The position numbers and the translations under genes are program-made. A stretch of 64,000 bases of DNA from NCBI GenBank assembly GCA_001873435.1, contig MNZB01000002.1, forward strand, positions 65,620 to 129,619. Direction: 5' to 3'. How positions within the stretch are numbered: the stretch's first letter is position 1; each line of letters starts with the position of its first letter. This document shows, piece by piece, positions 25,856 to 53,185 of the stretch. The notes under the pieces are model-generated. The model was not told where the DNA came from and did not search any database. It was given only the letters and a program-made list of their open reading frames with translations. This stretch comes from Candidatus Pacebacteria bacterium CG2_30_36_39. Lineage in GTDB: Bacteria; Patescibacteriota; Microgenomatia; UBA1400; PJMF01.

Positions 25856-26131
25856 TTGTTTGAATGTATAATTTTAATAATGAAAAAAAGAGTTTTATCT
25901 TTAGATTTGGCTAGAGTTTTATCTATTTTAGGTGTAGTTGCGATTCATGCTGAAAATATTACTTCTTCAAAAACAAATTATTTAGGTGGAATTTCTTGGT
26001 GGTTTGTCAATACAGTTCATTCTTTGGTTGCTGTAAGTGTTCCTTTATTTGTCATGATTTCTGGAACACTATTGTTAAATAAGAAAGATTTATCTAATAA
26101 TTATGTTTTTAGCAAAATAAAAAATATTTAA
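25856..26131 (+). pseudogene. acyltransferase-3 family N-terminal fragment (truncated remnant)
   Basis: LSLDLARVLSILGVVAIHA... matches the first two TM helices of OatA-like acyltransferase_3 proteins. At 91 aa the ORF is far shorter than that family. Confidence 0.45.
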
Positions 26132-26185: not shown

Positions 26186-27001
26186 TCATATACACTGTAA
26201 GTATTCGAGAGCTCCATCTGTATATTTTTTTGAAGTTGTAAAAACTGGGTAAAGCGCATTCAAATAATGTTTGCTCTCACCAACAAAAACAAATTCAGTC
26301 ATTAGACCTTTTTCTGAAAAAAAATCGCTCATCTGCATGTCAGAAACAGAATCTCCAAAACAAATTATTTTTAATTGGTTTTTTAAAATGAAATGATGCT
26401 CATTAAGCCACTTATAAATTTTGAATGCTCCAAGCTTTTTATCAAAGTTTTGCGGTTTAATATCGATAGCAATGGTAGACGATGAGGGTCTTATGTGAAT
26501 AGATGGATAATAATTCTTTAAGATGATATCTATCGTTGCCTTTAGTTTGCTTTGCTCCAACCTATATTTTTCCAAAGGAAACCCCTTCATCATTTCTATG
26601 GTAAGAATAGCTTTCTTACTCTGATCGACAAACATTGAGTCATGGTAAATGCAATCAACAATACTTTGAACAGTATTTTTTAATTGTATTGGAATAATAT
26701 TATTTTCTGTGATTTTTGAGGTATAGTTGCCATCTTGATCTGTTTTTAATATAACAGCTCCCATTTCACAGACACAAAAAAACATTTTTTTTGATAGTTT
26801 CTTATCAATATATTTGCAGATGTTTTTAATAACCCAATCTGATGATCTGCCTGTATTCAACAAAACTGGAATATTATTACTAAGTCTCTTATTAAGAAAG
26901 GAGAAAATTGCTGGATTATCTACTTTTTTGGAGATAGGATCAGTTAATACTCCATCTATGTCGAATACCCAAAGATTGTTTTTCTGTGTTGATCTAATCA
27001 T
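26186..27001 (-). CDS. HAD-superfamily hydrolase (Cof/IIB-like phosphatase)
   Basis: Motif I FDIDGVLTD, motif II LNTGRS, motif IV GDSVSD. Confidence 0.7.
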   Translation of the reverse strand: MIRSTQKNNLWVFDIDGVLTDPISKKVDNPAIFSFLNKRLSNNIPVLLNTGRSSDWVIKNICKYIDKKLSKKMFFCVCEMGAVILKTDQDGNYTSKITENNIIPIQLKNTVQSIVDCIYHDSMFVDQSKKAILTIEMMKGFPLEKYRLEQSKLKATIDIILKNYYPSIHIRPSSSTIAIDIKPQNFDKKLGAFKIYKWLNEHHFILKNQLKIICFGDSVSDMQMSDFFSEKGLMTEFVFVGESKHYLNALYPVFTTSKKYTDGALEYLQCI

Positions 27002-27005
27002 TTTA

Positions 27006-27114
27006 CTTGTGACCTTAGGCCTTCCACATCAGAACCAGGTTATTTTAGACCTGGTAAAGCTATTCAATACATTCCTACCAGATATAAAACAATTGGGCTT
27101 ATTACTCAGTAAGG
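27006..27114 (+). repeat. structured ~110-bp repeat, copy A (conserved 24-bp core attactcagtaaggggatttgaac at 27091..27114; internal hairpin ccaggt/acctgg)
   Basis: Aligns ~75% with copy B over its whole length. The two copies share blocks tgtgacc, ttccacat, taccagatat and the identical 24-bp core. The hairpin arms differ between copies but stay complementary. Confidence 0.5.
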
Positions 27115-27138
27115 GGATTTGAACTATCAAACTAGATT

Positions 27139-27366
27139 TTATTCTGTTTTCTCTGATTTTCTGTAAGCTGCAAGAGAGTCATTTTCTTTTGCTCTATCTA
27201 AAAGCATTCCAATGGTGTCTTTAATTTGAGCTAGTATTTCTTCATCTGAATAACCTTGTAGATTTTCATTTCTAGCTAATGATGCTAAAAGATCACTCAT
27301 GGGTTTTAATGCTTCTCCTCCAATCAACATTCTTAATTTTCTTTCTCTATCGCTCATTATTTCCAT
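27139..27366 (-). CDS. small hypothetical protein flanked by the repeat copies
   Basis: 75-aa ORF. Confidence 0.35.
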   Translation of the reverse strand: MEIMSDRERKLRMLIGGEALKPMSDLLASLARNENLQGYSDEEILAQIKDTIGMLLDRAKENDSLAAYRKSEKTE

Positions 27367-27495
27367 GATGGCTTATGTCCTTTATTTTATTTGTACATAT
27401 TAAATGTATCATAAATTGTTTTTTTTATGAACATTATTAGTAATTTGAGGGGAGTATATTTTTATCTATTTAATAATAGATGTCTATATTTATAT

Positions 27496-27623
27496 ATGGG
27501 TAAATTGTGACCCTTCGTGTTCCACATACGAACGAGATCATTGGTGATCTAGTGGACTTATTTAATACCTTTATACCAGATATGAGACAACTCGGTTTAA
27601 TTACTCAGTAAGGGGATTTGAAC
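27496..27623 (+). repeat. structured repeat, copy B (core at 27600..27623; hairpin gatca/tgatc)
   Basis: See copy A. Lies immediately 3' of minus-strand ORF 27640..28173. Confidence 0.5.
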
Positions 27624-27639
27624 GGTGTGGAGTTGTTAA

Positions 27640-28173
27640 TTATTTGTTTTTTCCAATCACTACTTTTGGAGAGAATGTTATTTTTTGTCTTATTTGACCC
27701 TCATGAGTTTCTTTTGGACAAATTTTTATATCAAAGGATTTTTTAAAAACAAGATTGCATATTTCAAAATGATCTCTTAATTCTGAACAAACATTTTCGT
27801 ATTCTATTACTCCATTGATGAAATTATGTAAAACTTCATTTCTTTTATTCCAATAGTTTTTTATTTTTCTTGATTCACTTGTGGTGAATATTTCAACTTG
27901 CCTTGTATAGTTAGCTAGTTCTATAACATCCTTTTCTTTTTTTAGAATTTTTCTTATTTTATTTTTCTTAGTTTTTTGTTGCTCAAGATACATTTCAATG
28001 GTTATTGATAAATAGTATTTAAGAATATTAATAGATAGAGATAGTGCTTCTATGCAGTAACCATTTTTACGTGCTTTATTAAATTTTTCTACAGTCTCCC
28101 AAGCTTTAGGAAATCTTGAGTTTGAAATTTCTAATCCTTTTACTTCAGTTGGTACAGGTAAGACTTTTATCAT
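27640..28173 (-). CDS. hypothetical protein (very AT-rich)
   Basis: 177-aa ORF. Confidence 0.35.
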   Translation of the reverse strand: MIKVLPVPTEVKGLEISNSRFPKAWETVEKFNKARKNGYCIEALSLSINILKYYLSITIEMYLEQQKTKKNKIRKILKKEKDVIELANYTRQVEIFTTSESRKIKNYWNKRNEVLHNFINGVIEYENVCSELRDHFEICNLVFKKSFDIKICPKETHEGQIRQKITFSPKVVIGKNK

Positions 28174-28280
28174 TAATTTACTATATCAGTCTTAATAACT
28201 TGTACTCAAATCTAGTTATTGTGAACATTTAACTAGTATATAATTTATTTTTAGATATTTTTTAAAATTAAAGGAAAAAT

Positions 28281-28511
28281 ATGTTTATCCCTGGATGGAT
28301 TTTGGTCGTTTTTATTTTTATTTTAATAGATTATTTTCTTCAAAAAAGAAATGTTTCAATTCTTGAAAAAGAAAGAGATTCTTTAATGATGAAGCTATCT
28401 CCATACTTGATAAAAGAAGAGAGAGAGAAAGCAGATAAAGAACTGTTTGCTATGGAAGAAGAAATGTTTAAAGATGTTAAAAATAGTAAAACTAAAAAAA
28501 AGAAAAAATGA
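28281..28511 (+). CDS. small hypothetical membrane protein
   Basis: 76 aa, N-terminal TM helix. Very AT-rich. Confidence 0.3.
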   Translation: MFIPGWILVVFIFILIDYFLQKRNVSILEKERDSLMMKLSPYLIKEEREKADKELFAMEEEMFKDVKNSKTKKKKK

Positions 28512-28891
28512 TTGCTAATTTTTTAAGACAAGTTAAAAATAAAATATTATTATTATTTTATAATTTATTGGAGTTTTTTGATAAGTCTCCTTTACAGAAA
28601 AATAACGAAGATATTGAAAAATATCTTTTTAGGATAGATAAAAAATATGCACTTAGATATTTAAATTTTTGGATTTCACTTATGCCTGATTATAATTCAT
28701 CTATTCTATCTGATTTAATTGAGAAAGAAAAAAACGAAGATAAAAAAGAATTATTTAATATGATGTTGGATGCTGAAGCAAAAAAAATAAAACTAATTAT
28801 TCTTAAAAAGAAAATCTTAGAAAAAAAACTTACATCTGTGGAAAAAAAAGCCCTAATAACAATTAAAAAAAGATTCGAAACAAGAAACTAA
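28508..28891 (+). CDS. hypothetical Lys/Glu-rich protein
   Basis: 127-aa ORF overlapping the previous stop. Confidence 0.3.
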   Translation: MIANFLRQVKNKILLLFYNLLEFFDKSPLQKNNEDIEKYLFRIDKKYALRYLNFWISLMPDYNSSILSDLIEKEKNEDKKELFNMMLDAEAKKIKLIILKKKILEKKLTSVEKKALITIKKRFETRN

Positions 28892-29012
28892 TTCAATCAT
28901 TGGAAGAAGAAAATGGCAATATTGTGACCCTAGTGACGCGTGGTTTGAACCGCTTTTAGCTCATTTTGAGCAACTCCGCCAGATGTACGAGACATCAGAA
29001 CAGGAGGAAAGC

Positions 29013-29454
29013 GATGTTTAAGTCTACCTTATTTGACGAGTCAACTTTCTACAAGCAGTTTACCACGGATTTACTCAAGGCCAAACAAGAAGTAGTGATC
29101 GAGAGTCCATTTATCACTACTAAAAGAATGAATCAGCTAGCACCTATCTTTAGTAAGCTGGTTAGACGTGGAGTTAGAGTCTACGTCATCACCAGAGACC
29201 CTAGAGAACATCGAGAGCCTTACAAAGAGCAGTCGGAGCATGAGATACAGCACTTTGAACAAATTGGGGTGCAGGCGCTAATCTGCCAGGGCAATCATCA
29301 TCGCAAGTTAGCGATAATTGACAGAAAGATTCTTTGGGAAGGCAGTCTTAATATACTATCTCAGATTAAAAGCAGGGAAATTATGCGCCGCTTTGATGGC
29401 GGCGGCTTCGCCGTGGAGATGTTTAATTTTTTGAAACTCGAGAGATTTATATAA
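29013..29454 (+). CDS. PLD-superfamily single-HKD nuclease (Nuc/NucT-like); ORF opens at 28966 but SD-supported start is 29013
   Basis: HKD motif HHRKLAIIDRKILWEGSLN (HxKx4Dx6GSxN). AGGAGGAAAGCG-ATG at 29013. GC clearly higher than surrounding DNA. Confidence 0.7.
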
Positions 29455-29489
29455 ATTATGGTAGACTACCACTATCAATAAAGGAAAAT

Positions 29490-29699
29490 ATGACAAAACA
29501 ACCAATAGAAGCAGAAATCCAAAAAGTACTTAAGATGCTTGAGGAATCAGATCCAGCTAATGCTACTCGTGAGAATGCTATCAAAGTTATTGAAGGTATG
29601 AAAACAATGGCAAGTGGAGTGATCGACAAGATTGATGATGATCTAAAAACAGGTAAAGTAAAAGTTTCTGATGATGGCAAAGTTACTCGAAAAGGTTAG
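29490..29699 (+). CDS. small hypothetical acidic protein
   Basis: 69-aa ORF with SD AAAGGAAAATATG. Confidence 0.3.
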   Translation: MTKQPIEAEIQKVLKMLEESDPANATRENAIKVIEGMKTMASGVIDKIDDDLKTGKVKVSDDGKVTRKG

Positions 29700-29906
29700 T
29701 TAAAAAGGTAAGACTTCAGACGATTTAATTCCAAGAGCTTTGACTATTTTCTCTAGTGCTTCGTAAGAAGGATTTTCTCCACCACGCTCAATACGAGCAT
29801 AGTAGTTAACATGCATCTTGGCTTTATCAGCTATCTGTTGCTGGGTTAGTCCAGTCTTGTTACGAGCTGACTTAATGTTTTGGCCGAATTGTTGTTGTGA
29901 TCCCAT
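29700..29906 (-). CDS. XRE-family helix-turn-helix transcriptional regulator
   Basis: 68 aa. GQNIKSARNKTGLTQQQIADKAKMHVNYYARIERG is a classic Cro/CI HTH. Start 6 nt after the TIR gene stop. Confidence 0.8.
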   Translation of the reverse strand: MGSQQQFGQNIKSARNKTGLTQQQIADKAKMHVNYYARIERGGENPSYEALEKIVKALGIKSSEVLPF

Positions 29907-29912
29907 ATTTAT

Positions 29913-30401
29913 TTACCTGCCTGCATTAGCTGCAGCTATTTCTATCCAGTTTCCCATGTTATTGTATCCATCATCATTTACCCAATCATAAGTTTTGTAT
30001 AGTTCTGCAAAATATATCTTTTTGCCATCTCTAGTTATATACCAGTCTGAAAAAGGATTTCTTCCTTTACTAGTAGTGTTTCCTTCTCGATCTTTTTTAT
30101 TATGTATGTAGATTCCGAGTAAACCATTTTTTTTGCCATGACTGCTTTTTATCTCATAATCAATCCACTTTCTCCCTGATGTATTTTCTCCAATTAATAC
30201 TACAGTTACTGAGGTGCCAGATAATTGGCCATCAATCCATTTCTTTATATCAGCATCATCTTTCTTTTTAACCTCTTCCCATTCAGCTGAATCAAAAAAG
30301 CCGGCAGCTTTCCTATCTTGAGTAACCCAGCTATTTCTTACTTGTGAAGCTCTCCAGTTATCCTGCTTGTAATGAAAGCTGAAAAATGTTTTTCTTGTCA
30401 T
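29913..30401 (-). CDS. TIR-like domain protein (DUF1863 / Thoeris ThsB-like)
   Basis: 162 aa. N-terminal FFSFHYKQD...VRNSWVT, central TSVTVVLIGENTSGRKWIDYEI, C-terminal YKTYDWVNDDGY. This pattern closely resembles MTH538/ThsB-type TIR proteins. Confidence 0.68.
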   Translation of the reverse strand: MTRKTFFSFHYKQDNWRASQVRNSWVTQDRKAAGFFDSAEWEEVKKKDDADIKKWIDGQLSGTSVTVVLIGENTSGRKWIDYEIKSSHGKKNGLLGIYIHNKKDREGNTTSKGRNPFSDWYITRDGKKIYFAELYKTYDWVNDDGYNNMGNWIEIAAANAGR

Positions 30402-42000: not shown

Positions 42001-43614
42001 CCCCGTGAGAGTGCCCTCACAAAAGCTGTCCCATGAGGAAACGGAAGAATTGGAATAAGCCAGAGTCGTGTAGACACTGTAGGTGCCGTTTTGGGACAAG
42101 GTAAAGTCGTCTAAAATAACAGTCTTGCCTGACTTTACTAACACACCATAATTGCGGGATTCAGCAGCTCCCGTGACTTGACCCGCAAGTTTCCACCAGC
42201 CAGATCCCTGATCAGTGTAGGTAGTGGTGACAGTTGAGCCGTTGTAATAAAGCTGGGCAATCGAGGATGAGACAGTTCCTCCCTCACTCCCACTGGTGTT
42301 GTCATAGACATAAGCCGAAAGATCGTAAGTTGAGGTGTCACCGACGTTGACTGATTGGGTAACTTTAGCGTCAGAAATAGACCCCACCAAAATTTGGTCG
42401 CCGCCGGTCGCTTCGCGACCAAGAGAAGAGGAGAAAGAGGAAGAGAGGTCTACGGGATCACTGGCGCAGCGAAAGCCAAGAGCGCTGTACTGACCGCCTG
42501 GCGCATTACCCAGATTCAAAGCGAATGCCCCGGCGCTGGCCGTAAGACTCCAATTACCGCCGCGGCGGAAGGCATTGTTCAATGCCCCACCATAAACTTG
42601 ACCCATGCCGTGAGCTGATAGATAGCCACTAGCTGGCCCATATAGGTCAATAGCGCCCGCTGCTATATTGGCATGGTTCCAGTCTAACCAGCCGACAGTA
42701 GTATTAATTGCTTCTGTTTGCACATCACTATTCCAGTCCCAGACGTTGCCAGACATATCCCAAATCTCGGTGCCGTTACTAAGGGTTAGCTTGGCTTTAG
42801 TGTCTCGGCCTGTACCGTATTCTGGATCAGCGCCGTTGTAACCAACACTCGTGGTTTCACCCACATTACCTCGGAACATTCCACCACCCGCAGCTACAGT
42901 GGAGCCTACTGTGCCGTCTGCCCAGTTAGAGGCTTGGGACTCGGCATTTCTAGCAATGGTCATCCACTCAGTGTTAGAGATGAGATGATAGCCAGATGGA
43001 CAAGCTGAGAGTGCCTGGGTTTGAGTGATGTGCACAATTGGCGCACCGTTTGCTGAAGAGACCACCTTGGCAGTATCAAAGCTAGCAATGTCACGATAGT
43101 CTAGTCCAGAGCCTGAGTCAGCAGGAGCGCTACAGGTGGCAGCCGTATCACCGTCTCCGTCTGCTGTACAGTCATACTTGGCTTCATAGGCCATCGCTAA
43201 GAAGGCTTTGTCATCTCCACCCGTCATAAAGGTGCTGTTACCTGGTACGGGGATATATCCAGCAGGGGTAGTCGAGCCGGCAATAGGGGTGATCGACCAA
43301 GAGGAGTTGTCGGCAGAAAAATCAGGGTTAGTGAACTTGTTAACTCCAGAGACTGGATGAGCTCCAGAACCATCTACTGCCACCAGATTACTATCATAAG
43401 TGTAGTTAGCCGCCTCCCCGGTACTAAACGTCCAGTTTTTGCTAGTGTCATTGAGGGCAAATACATTGGGGAAGACCTCGAATAGTGCTAAATAGATACC
43501 AGTTACAAGACCAATAGAAGAAATCAGGACAGTAAACGCATTAAGCTGAAAGCGGGACAAATGCCATCTTGGGGAGAAGAAGTAGAGCTTGAGTTTGTGT
43601 AGTAAAGTCTTCAT
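39034..43614 (-). CDS. DGR target (variable) protein: N-terminal signal/anchor, FGE-sulfatase-type C-type-lectin fold carrying the VR, then Ser-rich linker and >1100 aa of FN3/Ig-like repeats
   Basis: 1526 aa. FGE-type motifs GYHLISNTEW, GNVWDW, RGGNW, GFRCASD. The VR at 42466..42562 matches the TR near the reverse transcriptase. FN3-like repeats (ISWSTSRSADSKVAYGTS...YYYKAKWTDEDGN). Confidence 0.8.
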   Translation of the reverse strand: MKTLLHKLKLYFFSPRWHLSRFQLNAFTVLISSIGLVTGIYLALFEVFPNVFALNDTSKNWTFSTGEAANYTYDSNLVAVDGSGAHPVSGVNKFTNPDFSADNSSWSITPIAGSTTPAGYIPVPGNSTFMTGGDDKAFLAMAYEAKYDCTADGDGDTAATCSAPADSGSGLDYRDIASFDTAKVVSSANGAPIVHITQTQALSACPSGYHLISNTEWMTIARNAESQASNWADGTVGSTVAAGGGMFRGNVGETTSVGYNGADPEYGTGRDTKAKLTLSNGTEIWDMSGNVWDWNSDVQTEAINTTVGWLDWNHANIAAGAIDLYGPASGYLSAHGMGQVYGGALNNAFRRGGNWSLTASAGAFALNLGNAPGGQYSALGFRCASDPVDLSSSFSSSLGREATGGDQILVGSISDAKVTQSVNVGDTSTYDLSAYVYDNTSGSEGGTVSSSIAQLYYNGSTVTTTYTDQGSGWWKLAGQVTGAAESRNYGVLVKSGKTVILDDFTLSQNGTYSVYTTLAYSNSSVSSWDSFCEGTLTGSTCSDDGVTASGNASVVYQLCLDDGSTCESGGSWNYWDGGAWATASNTTTHVNTAAELTQSAMQALSVTSQKISIKAIMGFGGADTPSITNLSIGLTTDTAAPDTNASAIAMTRTNGGTSMSSNDWTNNIAPYYSWTAGADNAGGVGLKGYCLYLGTDPDGDPATSKGLLGTSPVSTAGSTCQFIVAGTSIDFATTSYRGSTWLTTGSDPYYLNIKAIDNAENVFTGASEQFQFRFDNTPPTNVSYVSCPGGSFANVADMNFSWPTSGATATVDDNAGTLGWQYQINTTGGTWLGTTTESVLGINNYIPTSETSRTLTDAQDGSGIATGSNIVYFRSVDAAGNVSADASIRTCSLEYGGAAPTFGGSDTITVAPSSSTANSFALSWPEATATLGQSVTNYYYMVNVAPPSTLSTITGNAATYIDNGTAITVDATALPGVNKGSNTVYVVAVDDADNYSPSNYISGTFTLNSTDPDNVSNLVASDSSIKSESKWYATLTWTAPSYQGAGNLTYLVYRSADGTTFSQVGTTSGLSYVDNTPESAQYYYKIYTKDGANATSSGTNAVTITPTGRYTTAPTLSSEPSESGITTKKAKISWSTSRSADSKVAYGTSSGSYNTEEPSSSSQVTDHEINLTGLTAGTTYYYKAKWTDEDGNTGESDENSFTTQAAPTVFDVSAENVGLTSGIIQYTVKGASKVKIYYGKTTNFGAVKEVSTSTSETTYTTQLAELDDGTKYYYKINTFDSDNYEYDNQINDFTTLPRPKISGVRLETVANAAQTTIRVTWSTNTEVSSIVTYYPENNAGEARDEVKVLLEKGAHSMIIRNLAAQTKYFLVVKGRDKLGNEATSDIQRFTTATDTRPPQILNLKVIGGTIPPVWFAAGDVKAQLIVTWDTDEPASSQVEFGQGSGNTYSQKSQYDGNLTNNHTVILSGLVPSQVYHLRAISQDGTGNNTQSIDLVTIAPKATRSALDLVIKNLSEAFGFVTGVIPK
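42466..42562 (-). repeat. DGR variable repeat (VR) core; homology to TR extends 42456..42574
   Basis: 119-bp match to 45888..46006. 13 of 14 core mismatches have T in TR versus G/C/A in VR on the plus strand, i.e. A on the coding minus strand. Confidence 0.72.
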
Positions 43615-44462
43615 GTTAGTTGTTTCTTTTTTGAGGGAGGCAAGTAATTAGCTTTAGTTGACACTTTCTTACCACTTTTCTCTTCAAGCTCTTGTTTGGC
43701 GTTCCCAGCAATCTTACCACCTTCTTTGGCGGCTTGTTTGTTTTGGGAAAACCCTCGAGCATCTTTATTTTTAGCAATTTCGGTAGTAGAGGCCTCCCCC
43801 AGCATGGAGAAGATTAACTCCAGATCATTCATATGATCTCGCAAGTTCTCACGCTCAAGTCCTTTGAATTTTTTGTATTCTGAGGGAGTCATCCCAAAGG
43901 TAGCCTTGGAGATTTCTGCTGTTAGGATTGCATACTCGCGGTCTTGACCAACATTTCTCTTTTTCCATTCGTCTGTCAGAGTCTCGCGGATTTCTATTCC
44001 GCGCATGCGTTTCTCAATCCAAGAATCAGGATATCCTTTAGCCTTATATATGGCTCTAGTGCGTTTTGTGGCTAACTCTGGGTCTTCTATCTCTTGTACT
44101 CGTTCATAACCGACTTTGGCTAGCCAACGCTTGAAAGGTTCTGCTTTGGGAGAAGGGATAGACTGGATAAGTCTAAATATTCCCTCTGTATTCCAACAAT
44201 AAGCCTTTTGCCTACCACCTGGAGTTTCGATTTCTAGCATAAGGGGTGGTACAAATTGTACCCCCCCCTCATCGGTCAACTTAGCTAACTCCACATCTCT
44301 TGTTTTAAGTCTTTTGAAGTATTGGGATGGGTCTCTTGAATCTGTCAAAGATTGGATAACGTCGTTTATCACAAACCACCACTCATTATTGTGAATGGTT
44401 TTCCTTACTTTTTTGCCCTTAAATATGGCAATTTTAGTAGTAATTGTTTCTGGTTTTTTCAT
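43611..44462 (-). CDS. Bro-N domain protein (phage antirepressor-like)
   Basis: N-terminal IAIFKGKKVRKTIHNNEWWFVINDVIQSL resembles the Bro-N DNA-binding domain. 283 aa. Stop overlaps the target-gene start (ATGA). Confidence 0.55.
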   Translation of the reverse strand: MKKPETITTKIAIFKGKKVRKTIHNNEWWFVINDVIQSLTDSRDPSQYFKRLKTRDVELAKLTDEGGVQFVPPLMLEIETPGGRQKAYCWNTEGIFRLIQSIPSPKAEPFKRWLAKVGYERVQEIEDPELATKRTRAIYKAKGYPDSWIEKRMRGIEIRETLTDEWKKRNVGQDREYAILTAEISKATFGMTPSEYKKFKGLERENLRDHMNDLELIFSMLGEASTTEIAKNKDARGFSQNKQAAKEGGKIAGNAKQELEEKSGKKVSTKANYLPPSKKKQLT

Positions 44463-44565
44463 AGTTAATAAGCTCTATTCATCAATGACAAAATTAGCCA
44501 CCAATTTGCCTAATATTAATACTAGATTAGTGGTGAGTGTTTTGCAAGATGAGAGAAGACAATCG

Positions 44566-45663
44566 TTACTCAAATAAGCTCTTCATTAGTCCACGAGAGT
44601 CAGCGTGAGTTAAATGACCGATGATTGCGGCTTTGCTTGCCTCAAGTTCTTGAGTAGAGATAGTTTCATTTTTAAGTTGTTTCTTTTTCTTTCGCCAATT
44701 TCTCTCCATTCTAAGTAGAGTATTTCCACGAATCAAAATGTGATCATAAAAAACCCGGTAACCCACAAAGGGCACACCATTTTTGACGTCTTTGATATTA
44801 AGCTTCTTAGGGTGAAGGGACAAAGCCAAATTGTCTTTTAGATAAACATCTATCGTAGTTATTAGTTCTTTGAGGTACTCCTTGTCAGGATGAATGACGT
44901 AAAAATCATCCATATATCTGCCGTACCACTTGAGTTTTAACCTGTCCTTCATAAAATGATCAAGCTCATTAAGATAGATATTAGCAAATAACTGACTAGT
45001 TAAGTTGCCAATTGGTAATCCCACTCTTTTTTGAGTATTTATGCCAGGCGGTTGATAAGTACTGTTATTTGTAAAAAGAGTAAGTTGTTCTTTTGGGACT
45101 GAAGAGTTGCGATGATTGCTGGTGTGAGTAACAATAATTTTTTTAATCAAGGATCTTGTCTCTTCGCACTTGATAGTACGATTGATAATCGCGAGCAATT
45201 TATCCCAAGAAATACTCTGAAAAAACTTACTAATATCGCACTGCAGAGCATAAATCGGCGTATCTTTGCCATAAACACATCTAGCTGCCATGAGAAACTT
45301 TTTGAGTCTTTTAGCACCAAGGTGTGTTCCTTTTTCAATTCGACAAGCGTAAGCGTCATAAATGAACTGTTTTTCAAATAATGGCTGGATCTGTGCAACT
45401 AGCGAGTGTTGAACTACTCTGTCTCGAAAAGCAGGAGCAGCGATATTTCTTGCCTTTGGCTCATGCACTACGAAGTATGTATAAGCCTGGGGAGTGTATC
45501 GGTGGCGTGATAGCTCCCAACTGAGTCTATTGACATTTTCTTCCAAAAAGAAAGAAAAGACACACACTTTTCTCTTGTAGTGATTATCTAGTTGAGCTTT
45601 TTTGAAAGCATTATGTAAGTTTTGTAAGTTATATATTTTGTTAAACATGCTAATAAACGACAA
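44566..45663 (-). CDS. DGR-type reverse transcriptase
   Basis: 365 aa. RT motifs incl. LPIGNLTSQLFANIYLNELD and YGRYMDDFYV (YMDD). Compact size without maturase/endonuclease domains. TR immediately upstream. Confidence 0.85.
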   Translation of the reverse strand: MSFISMFNKIYNLQNLHNAFKKAQLDNHYKRKVCVFSFFLEENVNRLSWELSRHRYTPQAYTYFVVHEPKARNIAAPAFRDRVVQHSLVAQIQPLFEKQFIYDAYACRIEKGTHLGAKRLKKFLMAARCVYGKDTPIYALQCDISKFFQSISWDKLLAIINRTIKCEETRSLIKKIIVTHTSNHRNSSVPKEQLTLFTNNSTYQPPGINTQKRVGLPIGNLTSQLFANIYLNELDHFMKDRLKLKWYGRYMDDFYVIHPDKEYLKELITTIDVYLKDNLALSLHPKKLNIKDVKNGVPFVGYRVFYDHILIRGNTLLRMERNWRKKKKQLKNETISTQELEASKAAIIGHLTHADSRGLMKSLFE

Positions 45664-51432: not shown

Positions 51433-51606
51433 ATGAGTAAAGATAGCCTAAAACCAGAAGTAGATCAGAAGTTCCCAGTGCAAGATCTCCAAGATGCAAA
51501 AGTAGAAATCAAGTATCTAGCTCGCACTTGGTTAGATGACTTTGAGAAGCAAGTATTTCACGGCAAAACAGTAGAGGAGTTACTAGGTAGGGGTAACTAT
51601 GACTAG
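51433..51606 (+). CDS. 57-aa acidic small ORF overlapping the recombinase start (ATGACTAG); candidate recombination directionality factor
   Basis: ATG..TAG frame read manually. Below the ORF-track cutoff. Confidence 0.25.
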   Translation: MSKDSLKPEVDQKFPVQDLQDAKVEIKYLARTWLDDFEKQVFHGKTVEELLGRGNYD

Positions 51607-53158
51607 GGATGAGAAAAATACCAAAACTGATGCGATCCTATATCTCAGAGTCTCCACTGAGGAGCAAGTAGATAACTTCTCCCTTGGTACCCAAGAAGAA
51701 ATCTGTCGCAAAGAAGCGACTCGCATGGGCATGAAAATCGTCAAAATCTTTCGGGAAGAGGGCAAATCAGCCAAAACCATTGTCGGTAGACCTCAACTAG
51801 TTGAGCTCCTCAAGTATTGTAGGCAAAACAAAAAGACTCTAGGGGCAGTGTTTGTTTATCGCCTAGATAGACTCTCCAGAAAGACTGCTGACTACCTTAG
51901 CATTAGAAAAAGTCTGATTAACTATCAGATTCAGCTTATCTCAGCGTCAGAGCCTACAGGCACCTCACCAACAGACACACTTCTTGAGACTATTCTTGCT
52001 AGCTTTGCCCAGCACGACAACGACGTAAGGAGTGAGCGCACCAGAAACGGAATGCACGCTAGATTTATGTCGGGCCTTATTACTCGTAAGCCTCCTCTGG
52101 GTTACTTGATGAATCCTCAAAAGATCCCAGTCAAAGATCCTGAAACCTGGGATTTGGTCAAACAAGCTTGGGACTTAATGGCTACCGGCACCAAGAGCTT
52201 GCGAGAAATGGCAATAATCATGAATAAACTAGGTCTACGTACCAAGTCACACGGCAAACCATATGAACTAAGAACCCAGACTGCTCACCGCATCTTCAAA
52301 AACAAATTCTATGCTGGCATCCTTACCTCAGATACCTACAAAGAAGAGGTGAAGGGTCAACACACGCCCATGATTACTCTTGAGCAGTATTATCGAGTGC
52401 AAAACATCCTAGAAGGTAGATGTGTTAATAAAAAAGCTCTCAACATTAAAAAAACTCGACTCAATCAAAAGTTCCCTCTCAGAAGAATTATTAAATGTGC
52501 TGAGTGTGGGACTGGACTCACTGCTGGCTGGAGTAAGGGTAGAACCAAGAGATATCCTTACTATAGATGTGCTAATGGCTGTAAACAGACCTCGGTTAGA
52601 GCCGAAGTATTAGATGAGACAGTAGTAGAGCTACTTCGCTCAATTACACCCAAGAAAGAATGCCTAGAGCTCTTTACTCAGTATGTAGTCGAAGAATACG
52701 AGTCTAGACTCGAGAACATTAAGAAAGCCAAAAACGTTGCTGACGGCGAGATCCAGAGGCTCAAAGACATGCGAAAAATACTGGTCGAAAAGAACATGAT
52801 GGGCATCTATACCGATGAAATCTTTATGGAACAAAACGCCCTTATCGAGAAGAAAATGACTGTCGTCGAAGTAGCCAAATCCGACTCCACTCTAGAGAAA
52901 TATGACATCCACAAACTGTCTGATTTTATCAAGGCAACTCTTAGTGATCTGGGGAGTACTTATAAGCGGTCAACTGTTTCCCAGGCTAAAGCATTAATTG
53001 GTTCAATCTTCCCTTTGGGAATCAGTTACAACATTGACGGTACATTGAACCATGAAATTAACCCAATGTATCAAGCTATTCTCAACTATGATACTCAGGG
53101 CATCTCGTATGGTGACCCCATGGGGAATCGAACCCCAGTTACCAGGATGAGAACCTAG
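51599..53158 (+). CDS. large serine recombinase (integrase)
   Basis: Resolvase-type N-terminus AILYLRVSTEEQ with catalytic Ser, VYRLDRLSR, recombinase domain, and Cys-rich zinc ribbon (CAECGTGL...YYRCANGC). 519 aa. Its last ~49 nt overlap the tRNA-Glu gene. Confidence 0.85.
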   Translation: MTRDEKNTKTDAILYLRVSTEEQVDNFSLGTQEEICRKEATRMGMKIVKIFREEGKSAKTIVGRPQLVELLKYCRQNKKTLGAVFVYRLDRLSRKTADYLSIRKSLINYQIQLISASEPTGTSPTDTLLETILASFAQHDNDVRSERTRNGMHARFMSGLITRKPPLGYLMNPQKIPVKDPETWDLVKQAWDLMATGTKSLREMAIIMNKLGLRTKSHGKPYELRTQTAHRIFKNKFYAGILTSDTYKEEVKGQHTPMITLEQYYRVQNILEGRCVNKKALNIKKTRLNQKFPLRRIIKCAECGTGLTAGWSKGRTKRYPYYRCANGCKQTSVRAEVLDETVVELLRSITPKKECLELFTQYVVEEYESRLENIKKAKNVADGEIQRLKDMRKILVEKNMMGIYTDEIFMEQNALIEKKMTVVEVAKSDSTLEKYDIHKLSDFIKATLSDLGSTYKRSTVSQAKALIGSIFPLGISYNIDGTLNHEINPMYQAILNYDTQGISYGDPMGNRTPVTRMRT

Positions 53159-53185
53159 TGTCCTAAACCACTAGACGATGGGGCC
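53110..53185 (-). tRNA. tRNA-Glu (anticodon CUC), CCA encoded
   Basis: Manual cloverleaf: acceptor GGCCCCA/TGGGGTC, D-arm GTCT-AGTGGTTTA-GGAC, anticodon arm CTAGG-TTCTCAT-CCTGG, T-arm TGGGG-TTCGATT-CCCCA, ACCA. The D-arm TCGTCTAGTGG...GGACA is typical of tRNA-Glu. Confidence 0.85.

Follow-up and report, generated by a model that had tools for sequence, protein, structure and literature searches.

Two short direct repeats lie among small AT-rich genes in a contig of Candidatus Pacebacteria bacterium CG2_30_36_39 (GCA_001873435.1; MNZB01000002.1, positions 65,620–129,619), and the question raised by this locus is what such repeats are and how they came to be there. The stretch that was analysed, hereafter the window, is 64,000 nucleotides (nt) long, and coordinates are counted from its first letter. 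A preliminary description had viewed the repeats as structured elements, either recombination sites comparable in concept to the attC sites of integrons, terminators, or small non-coding RNAs. The two repeats, A and B, are protein-coding on the plus strand and not structured, and they are very probably the detached 3′ coding ends of large serine recombinase (LSR) genes, left by elements inserting at a tRNA-Glu gene. The conserved unit of A and B consists of the 3′ coding end of an LSR gene together with the P′ half of its attachment site, attP.

Coding nature of repeats A and B

Repeat A (27007–27124, plus strand) and repeat B (27505–27623, plus strand) are about 118 nt in size, lie 498 bp apart and are 71% identical across 95 nt, after which both are closed by the same 24-nt block, ATTACTCAGTAAGGGGATTTGAAC, which matches the window twice and its shuffled versions not at all. 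The direct repeats with an identical end block that first drew attention to the locus are thus real, and each does lie 3′ of a minus-strand open reading frame (ORF), 14–15 nt beyond the stops of 27139–27366 and 27640–28173, respectively. In A, the tail begins at 27009 with a GTGACC core and comprises a GAAC box at nt 24, a 37-codon frame (VTLGLPHQNQVILDLVKLFNTFLPDIKQLGLLLSKGI, then a stop) and a 3′ flank ending in TTTGAAC. In B, the tail begins at 27507 with a GTGACCC core, again has the GAAC box at nt 24, and has a frame of 34 codons (VTLRVPHTNEIIGDLVDLFNTFIPDMRQLGLITQ, then a stop). Ahead of its last 24 nt, A has suffered a 1-nt deletion that shifts the frame of its final codons, and this is consistent with decay. 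The last 24 nt of A (27101–27124) are those of B (27600–27623), and further copies of this 3′ subclass deviate from it at 2–6 of the 24 positions; the identity may reflect local gene conversion, a recombination breakpoint or a shared 3′ subclass.

The differences between A and B are distributed 11, 3 and 14 over the first, second and third codon positions of a single plus-strand frame, and this periodicity identifies the repeat as coding sequence. The shared frame reads (V)TLxxPHxNxxIxDLVxLFNTFxPDxxQLGL followed by a stop, the other five frames are interrupted by stops, and ten of the codon changes are synonymous. The proportions of synonymous and nonsynonymous sites that differ (pS and pN) are 0.57 and 0.22, corresponding to a ratio of nonsynonymous to synonymous divergence (dN/dS) of about 0.24 with dS about 1. 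Homologues behave in the same manner: of 38 unique copies, 31 keep the tail frame open for 34–37 codons, with the remaining two frames stop-rich, and pN/pS is 0.35 over 528 homologue pairs.

A hairpin had been described in both copies and taken, through compensatory changes, as evidence of a selected structure. The hairpin itself (6–7 bp) is present in the same register in A and B, and the approximately 118-nt length and cassette-like context of the repeats resemble those of chromosomal integron repeats; these features would favour structured single-strand elements, whether attC-type sites, small non-coding RNAs or terminators. The compensatory part of the claim did not survive a comparison of 35 homologues, in which 82% of cells pair compared with 81% in a column-shuffle null, the observed value being reached by 68 of 1000 shuffles. 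Controls with the hairpin slid along the alignment gave 17–39% pairing, which indicates only that the palindrome is conserved sequence. It arises from the codons AAC CAG ATy / GAT CTG GTT, encoding NQI/DLV, and synonymous third-position changes break its pairs freely, without compensation. Moreover, the suggested fold and covariance check on the repeat alignment returned −0.08 kcal/mol with RNAalifold and no covariation; Rfam gave no match, either at the gathering threshold over the whole window or at E ≤ 1 over 26800–29100; and no terminator-like site occurs within A or B. The repeat ends, GTGACC... and ...TTTGAAC, are non-complementary, the RYYYAAC...GTTRRRY ends of integron sites are absent, and a Pfam scan of roughly 30 ORFs of the window (about 14.7–54.2 kb) revealed no IntI or other tyrosine recombinase. 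All three structural proposals thus fail here, and an explanation of this kind is considered extremely unlikely.

Several further candidates were tried and rejected. The GGGGATTTGAAC end was considered as tRNA-like or tmRNA-like, but ARAGORN and Rfam found nothing at that position. The displaced 3′ end of an island-targeted host gene was discarded after none of about 50 copies proved to be fused to a long host ORF and a word-index protein search turned up no full-length protein with this tail. A template/variable repeat pair of a diversity-generating retroelement would confine its differences to adenines, which is not the case, and the reverse transcriptase lies 17 kb off. A leader peptide or riboswitch found no footing, as A and B have no plus-strand gene downstream and the spacing to downstream −10 boxes is 3–17 nt, and a −35 box in the 3′ TTGAAC was dropped for inconsistent spacing.

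Recombinase genes split and unsplit at the core

Homologues were recovered with back-translated motifs at 7 loci in Patescibacteria genomes and at 32 in metagenomes (loci carry the prefix L below), and a nucleotide profile mapped 60 copies in these 39 loci, always co-oriented within a locus and often at contig ends. Every copy begins with GTGACC, and the sequence upstream is unrelated between copies. An exact search of reference genomes for the 24-nt core gave 0 matches, as did a search of viral contigs with the tail. A local segmental duplication without wider meaning could have accounted for two copies 498 bp apart that share an identical block. This was the outcome that the search for further copies was meant to expose, and it is already refuted: the 95 nt that precede the block are 29% diverged, with dS about 1, and at least 39 other contigs, which come from different Patescibacteria lineages, carry homologues, so that the chance of such an explanation is negligible.

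The origin of the tail is revealed by genes in which it is still attached to a recombinase. An exhaustive profile search found P0014, in which an LSR C-terminal region runs in frame into an A/B-type tail (...QKEDL/VTLSIPHPNDIIDNLLDLFN..., the slash marking the core); P0014 belongs with locus L047 and is 49% identical to the LSR of L007. A search with the reconstituted L007 C-terminus then yielded P0026 (...EEKSEN/VAPHLWNPNRIISDLVKLF...), which is 82% identical to the L007-based query of LSR plus tail, and whose sister proteins are identical up to ..EN/V before diverging into the tail, antisense tRNA-Glu or other sequence. These unsplit genes show that the A/B-type repeat naturally forms the C-terminus of an LSR whose own gene contains attP.

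The same genes bear on a further explanation, which makes the repeat a small gene in its own right (GTG start, 34–37 amino acids) or a dual-function small RNA that became an insertion hotspot by chance. An open frame under purifying selection, a nearly invariant GTG and the many copies unattached to a longer ORF are what such a gene would offer. Set against this, no conserved ribosome-binding site or promoter lies upstream, the copies come after terminators of unrelated genes, and conservation of the first 9 nt extends to every codon position, as in a DNA site and unlike the region of a start codon. The same peptide is, moreover, the in-frame LSR C-terminus of P0014 and P0026, and a second tail family crosses the same core in another frame. 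An independent small gene is thus judged very unlikely.

Two LSR families are involved: family 1, to which the A/B tails belong, and family 2, to which the LSR of the window belongs, this LSR being 30% identical to that of the A/B type. In each family, the tail frame is that of its own LSR body at the core (GTG ACC in family 1, GGT GAC CC in family 2). In three cases (the window, L007 and L015), an LSR body runs into the core on the antisense strand of tRNA-Glu. At L007, for example, the junction reads gaa aat GTG ACC CCT, and the protein ends as ...EEKSEN/VTPSGIEPLLLG, followed by a stop, reading into the tRNA gene. L007 and L015 have this layout for family 1, and in both an A/B-type tail lies at the opposite end of the island (5.8 kb and 3.9 kb, respectively). 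At L015, moreover, a family-2 LSR body directly abuts a family-1 tail, an intermediate state that tandem insertion predicts.

The LSR of the window (51599–53158, plus strand; 519 amino acids; Resolvase, Recombinase and Zn_ribbon_recom domains by Pfam) is the only serine recombinase found there and is present in its integrated form. Its last 15 codons (..GDPMGNRTPVTRMRT, then a stop), from 53112, are the antisense strand of a tRNA-Glu (CTC) gene (53110–53185, minus strand), the one tRNA reported by ARAGORN in the window and the bearer of the attB/attR B′ arm. The junction reads ...tat GGT GAC CCC atg ggg aat cga acc..., and the antisense 3′ end of the tRNA gene, GTGACCCC (53112), is the common core and lies in the acceptor stem. 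Relatives of this enzyme that are likewise integrated (P0018–P0021) read into antisense tRNA. The artefact-like tRNA-derived ends recur in database entries (P0018–P0021, P0027 and P0031), and automatic annotation of these enzymes is accordingly misleading.

The counterpart of this junction is site C (28924–29021, plus strand), which consists of a GTGACCC core and a native family-2 LSR tail. In the frame of the window LSR (xGT GAC CCT), it encodes (G)DPSDAWFEPLLAHFEQLRQMYETSEQEESDV and a stop, a tail of 31 codons whose stop overlaps the start of a PLD gene at 29014. In the preliminary description, this was a collapsed third copy of the repeat in which the first and last blocks were directly joined. 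A third site does exist at 28924, and it has GTGACCCTA and the GAACC box in common with A and B; it is not a collapsed copy, as its TTTGAACC aligns with the internal GAACC box of A and B (nt 24–28) and not with the 3′-terminal TTTGAAC, and the tail that follows is its own, differing from the A/B tails and using another frame. A regular expression for the 5′ core with a GAAC box 16 nt on finds exactly three P-type sites in the window, at 27009, 27507 and 28924, all on the plus strand, against a mean of 0.5 in shuffles. The preliminary description had also placed the serine recombinase adjacent to A and B; it lies 24 kb off, it is of the other family, and its cognate site is C.

Site C is the attL of an integrated element at 28924–53118 and carries the tail of the window LSR. 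This follows from P0022, a relative of the window LSR at L046, which continues over the core in frame (...GDP/KAQQFEPFLAELEELRLIY) into a tail homologous to that of C, and from L046 itself, which aligns to both ends of the element, first to window positions 52769–53118 and then to 29014–29908. L046 was at first read as the free circular junction of a related element, and this is now doubtful owing to a second tail ahead of its PLD gene, although body and tail are still one frame.

Other tails and junctions were encountered in the same material. Arrays of family-2 tails like that of C occur at L029 (6329 and 7587) and L046 (815 and 1481), and in both loci a tail precedes a PLD gene, mirroring the junction of C and PLD in the window. 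A third tail-like family with the same core (GTGACCCAAAGG) is present in three copies in one contig (L037: 1828, 2641 and 10547), beside one family-1 tail, and encodes VTQRVWSWN(Y/H)LIxDLKKLKDQLFPQE.... Two more distant LSR genes, at L020 (59–1769) and L044 (1642–3412), continue into tRNA-Lys, from its 3′ end on the antisense strand, at GTGAGTCC, with the junctions ...IPDG/ESAGIRTRD... and ...SETV/CESAGTRTRD..., so that the split-integrase design is not confined to tRNA-Glu. Finally, a reverse transcriptase fragment and an Avd-like four-helix protein, both assigned by sequence motifs only, lie a few kilobases from a tail at L013 (1–1394; identical in sequence to L035), and may represent a diversity-generating retroelement.

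The integrated element of the window, of about 24.2 kb between C and tRNA-Glu, is conjugative. Its cargo includes a PLD nuclease, a helix-turn-helix (HTH) protein, a ThsB-TIR protein, a peptidase M23, VirB4/TraC-like proteins and type IV secretion system pilins, followed by an ABC/FtsX pair, a 1526-amino-acid protein, a Bro-N protein, a reverse transcriptase, a relaxase, a coupling protein and the LSR. At its left end (29014–30401), the PLD-family nuclease, a small ORF, the HTH regulator and the ThsB-like TIR protein form a module that may be defence cargo; no ThsA was found among the ORFs scanned. The recurrence of the tail before PLD at other loci suggests that elements of this type have the PLD/HTH/ThsB module as their conserved left end. 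Further inside (43611–45663), the reverse transcriptase (RVT_1, 365 amino acids) adjoins the Bro-N domain protein.

Attachment sites and proposed insertion history at tRNA-Glu

If the tails are products of recombination, then the junctions should have the anatomy of attachment sites. The core GTGACCC, 7 bp in length, is common to attL (28924) and attR (53112). At attL, the core is preceded by T (B-type) and followed by T (P′); at attR, it is preceded by G (P-type, as in L046) and followed by C (B′). The crossover, down to its exact dinucleotide, would lie within GTGACCC. Beyond the core, 33 of 38 tails have a GAAC box at nt 24–27, as do C and the tails that are still contiguous with an LSR at L046 and L047. 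In the antisense tRNA-Glu genes (11 of 11), the corresponding box is at nt 19–22, where it is the T-loop, 5 bp nearer the core than in the P′ arms. A hallmark of serine-integrase sites is that the zinc-ribbon-domain motif of attP lies 5 bp farther from the core than that of attB (PMC3783163), and the displacement from nt 19 to nt 24 equals this published shift. C accordingly has the features of a serine-integrase attL, namely an LSR at the other junction, a short core, exchanged flanks and the 5-bp motif shift. For the A/B type, an LSR at the other junction is found in L007 and L015, and not inside the window. The earlier proposal of a family of recombination sites bounding small cassettes, with a serine recombinase as the right type of enzyme, is borne out to this extent.

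A mechanism can be proposed on this basis. The attP would lie inside the LSR gene, about 31–37 codons ahead of its stop, and the target would be the extreme 3′ end of a tRNA-Glu gene antisense to the recombinase. Integration would split the LSR gene at the core: the body would stay proximal to the tRNA and gain 12–15 new codons from the antisense tRNA, while the native tail would be carried to the far end of the element as attL. A full-length gene would be restored by excision or by an adjacent second insertion. For the window LSR, recombination of attP with attB is predicted from these junctions; excision would join position 53111 to 28924 (...CTCGTATGGTGACCCTAGTGACGC... / ...CAGGGCATCTCGTATGGTGACCCTAGTGACGCGTGGTTTGAACC...), leaving an emptied site that reads ...GGCAATATTGTGACCCCATGGGGAATCGAACC....

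In the window, the order is A, B, C, the conjugative element and tRNA-Glu, as expected if elements inserted repeatedly at the tRNA end and the oldest unit came to lie farthest from it. A and B, as family-1 tails, would stem from two older insertions at the same tRNA-Glu gene, pushed leftwards by later arrivals, and their recombinase bodies would since have been lost through aberrant excision or deletion. What remains between A and B (27125–27506) is one 75-amino-acid ORF (27139–27366, minus strand) and an AT-rich spacer, with no recombinase. The remnant between B and C (27624–28923), with a GC content of 25–29%, contains ORFs at 27640–28173 (minus strand), 28281–28511 (plus strand) and 28508–28891 (plus strand), again with neither a recombinase nor a remnant of an LSR body. 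The stretch from 23 to 29 kb has a GC content of 25–32%, compared with 36–45% in its surroundings, so that older foreign material probably reaches to the left of A. There, at 25856–26131, lies a short ORF, probably a fragment of a gene, whose match to Acyl_transf_3 is confined to the N-terminal part of that domain.

In relatives, a tail followed 0.4–4 kb on by a minus-strand tRNA-Glu gene is found at L007, L008, L012, L015, L020, L022, L025, L027, L038 and L045. The insertion site appears in a syntenic setting across lineages, with a CTP synthase gene near the tRNA in L008, L020, L022 and L027 and a ribosomal protein L19 gene also at L008 and L022, both genes being assigned from N-terminal motifs only.

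Several points weigh against this history. The left half-sites (the P and B arms) have no recognisable symmetry to P′ or B′. No family-1 LSR occurs in the 64-kb window, nor does any LSR-body remnant to the left of B or C, so that the history of A and B is drawn from relatives. The unit from tail to tRNA-Glu is without an LSR in 8 of 11 loci, and its junction is still exactly at the core, for which simple decay is not an obvious explanation. L046, with its two tails, could represent a tandem array instead of attP in its free form. A circular junction or an empty site for the window element was not recovered, the contig look-up giving only the same arrangement and a search of viral contigs with the predicted excision junction giving 0 matches. 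Finally, splitting of an LSR gene alone leaves the identical 24-nt block of A and B unaccounted for.

Some of these points would also fit an integron-like platform, in which single-gene cassettes without a recombinase, each carrying the core and a P′ tail, are inserted next to tRNA-Glu and shuffled in trans by LSRs encoded elsewhere, with A and B as working sites. Arrays of 3–4 co-oriented tails, spaced 0.5–1.3 kb apart with one gene in either orientation between them, are found at L010/L036, L011, L014, L021, L026, L029 and in the window. One Nudix cassette is shared by L010 and L029, where the arrays around it differ, and the LSR-less units next to the tRNA that end exactly at the core would be cassettes of this kind. 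The sequence left of the core is, moreover, unconstrained even in real LSR genes. Against such a platform, purifying selection on the tail protein requires time spent inside a translated LSR gene, both attP half-sites are normally needed by serine integrases, a circular cassette was not seen, and aberrant excision or deletion combined with new insertions would yield an equal pattern. The platform is possible, though unlikely, and it is compatible with an origin of A and B as detached LSR ends, differing only in whether the sites are still active. An extended form is more speculative and quite doubtful: a serine-recombinase counterpart of the integron, in which the 3′ end of tRNA-Glu (or tRNA-Lys for other LSRs) would be the capture site and the tail the cassette site, with stacking in trans and with the exchange of native and tRNA-derived tails acting as a direction switch without a separate directionality factor.

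Relation to known systems and significance

The origin of A and B as detached ends of LSR genes has its closest parallels among tyrosine recombinases. In the Myxococcus bacteriophage Mx8, attP lies within the integrase gene, and integration provides a new 3′ end (IntP to IntX) while leaving the body of the enzyme intact (PMC6070905). Both the Mx8 and SSV integrases have been listed as extending over attP at tRNA-gene targets (PMC4383910). In the SSV type, the site is inside the ORF, and an element integrated at a tRNA gene is flanked by the gene pieces int(N) and int(C); pieces from different sources can be rejoined into hybrid genes, and these tyrosine recombinases are "so far restricted to archaea" (PMC7253208). 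As in Mx8, attP is here inside the integrase coding sequence and integration makes a recombinant gene; unlike in Mx8, the enzyme is a large serine recombinase and the common core is only 7 bp. We know of no description of orphan-tail arrays for Mx8. The family-2 body beside a family-1 tail at L015 is a counterpart of the SSV-type hybrid genes, whereas only the last 31–37 codons are removed here and all recognised domains stay in one piece. Splitting inactivates the "suicidal" SSV-type integrase and changes the activity of the Mx8 enzyme; in the LSRs, it replaces the C-terminal codons with 12–15 codons derived from the tRNA. As in both systems, an unsplit gene reads across the core (P0014/L047, P0026 and P0022/L046), and the parts of the gene lie at opposite ends of an element at a tRNA (the window, L007 and L015). 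The Pfam domains are those of a serine and not a tyrosine recombinase, and the element therefore works like the Mx8 and SSV systems without being a member of them.

Compared with the sites of A118/LI, Bxb1 and phiC31, those described here are similarly short, with identity limited to a small core and a distal motif 5 bp further out in attP; they differ in that attP is in the gene, the target is a tRNA, and the left half-sites lack evident dyad symmetry. In the serine integrases known to us, attP lies outside the gene. Tandem arrays of the Islander type also resemble this locus, in that successive insertions at one tRNA displace older elements and a diagnostic repeat marks each distal end. There, tyrosine integrases are at work and the repeat is a displaced 3′ fragment of the tRNA, tens of nt per unit; here, only 7 nt of the tRNA are duplicated and the remainder of the repeat is a fragment of LSR coding sequence. 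Integron arrays, finally, share the co-oriented repeats of about 60–140 nt between single-gene cassettes. The attC sites conserve structure over sequence, recombine as folded single strands and need IntI, in contrast to the present repeats, which are conserved as codons, show no covariation and are tied to serine recombinases. Neither a split serine integrase nor these tails were described in the literature searched, the coverage being incomplete and the result no more than absence of evidence; a serine version of the attP-in-integrase design at tRNA genes appears undescribed.

These observations have practical consequences. Gene callers miss the tails and assign spurious tRNA-derived C-termini to integrated LSRs. 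The pairs of attP and attB defined by the LSR–tail junction and the 3′ end of tRNA-Glu are candidate tools for genome engineering. As each tail stands for one insertion at the tRNA-Glu hotspot, island boundaries can be mapped to the base in these genomes, which are poorly annotated (28924–53118 in the window).

For the biology of these bacteria, the tails would amount to a readable record of past insertions at the hotspot. The different C-termini of an LSR before and after integration suggest a way in which recombination might be given its direction, should the exchange of tails affect function. The Islander authors stated that serine integrases were not known to target tRNA genes (PMC4383910), and the enzymes described here provide examples. 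Moreover, they extend the design in which attP lies inside the integrase gene from tyrosine integrases to LSRs, and to bacteria of the candidate phyla radiation.

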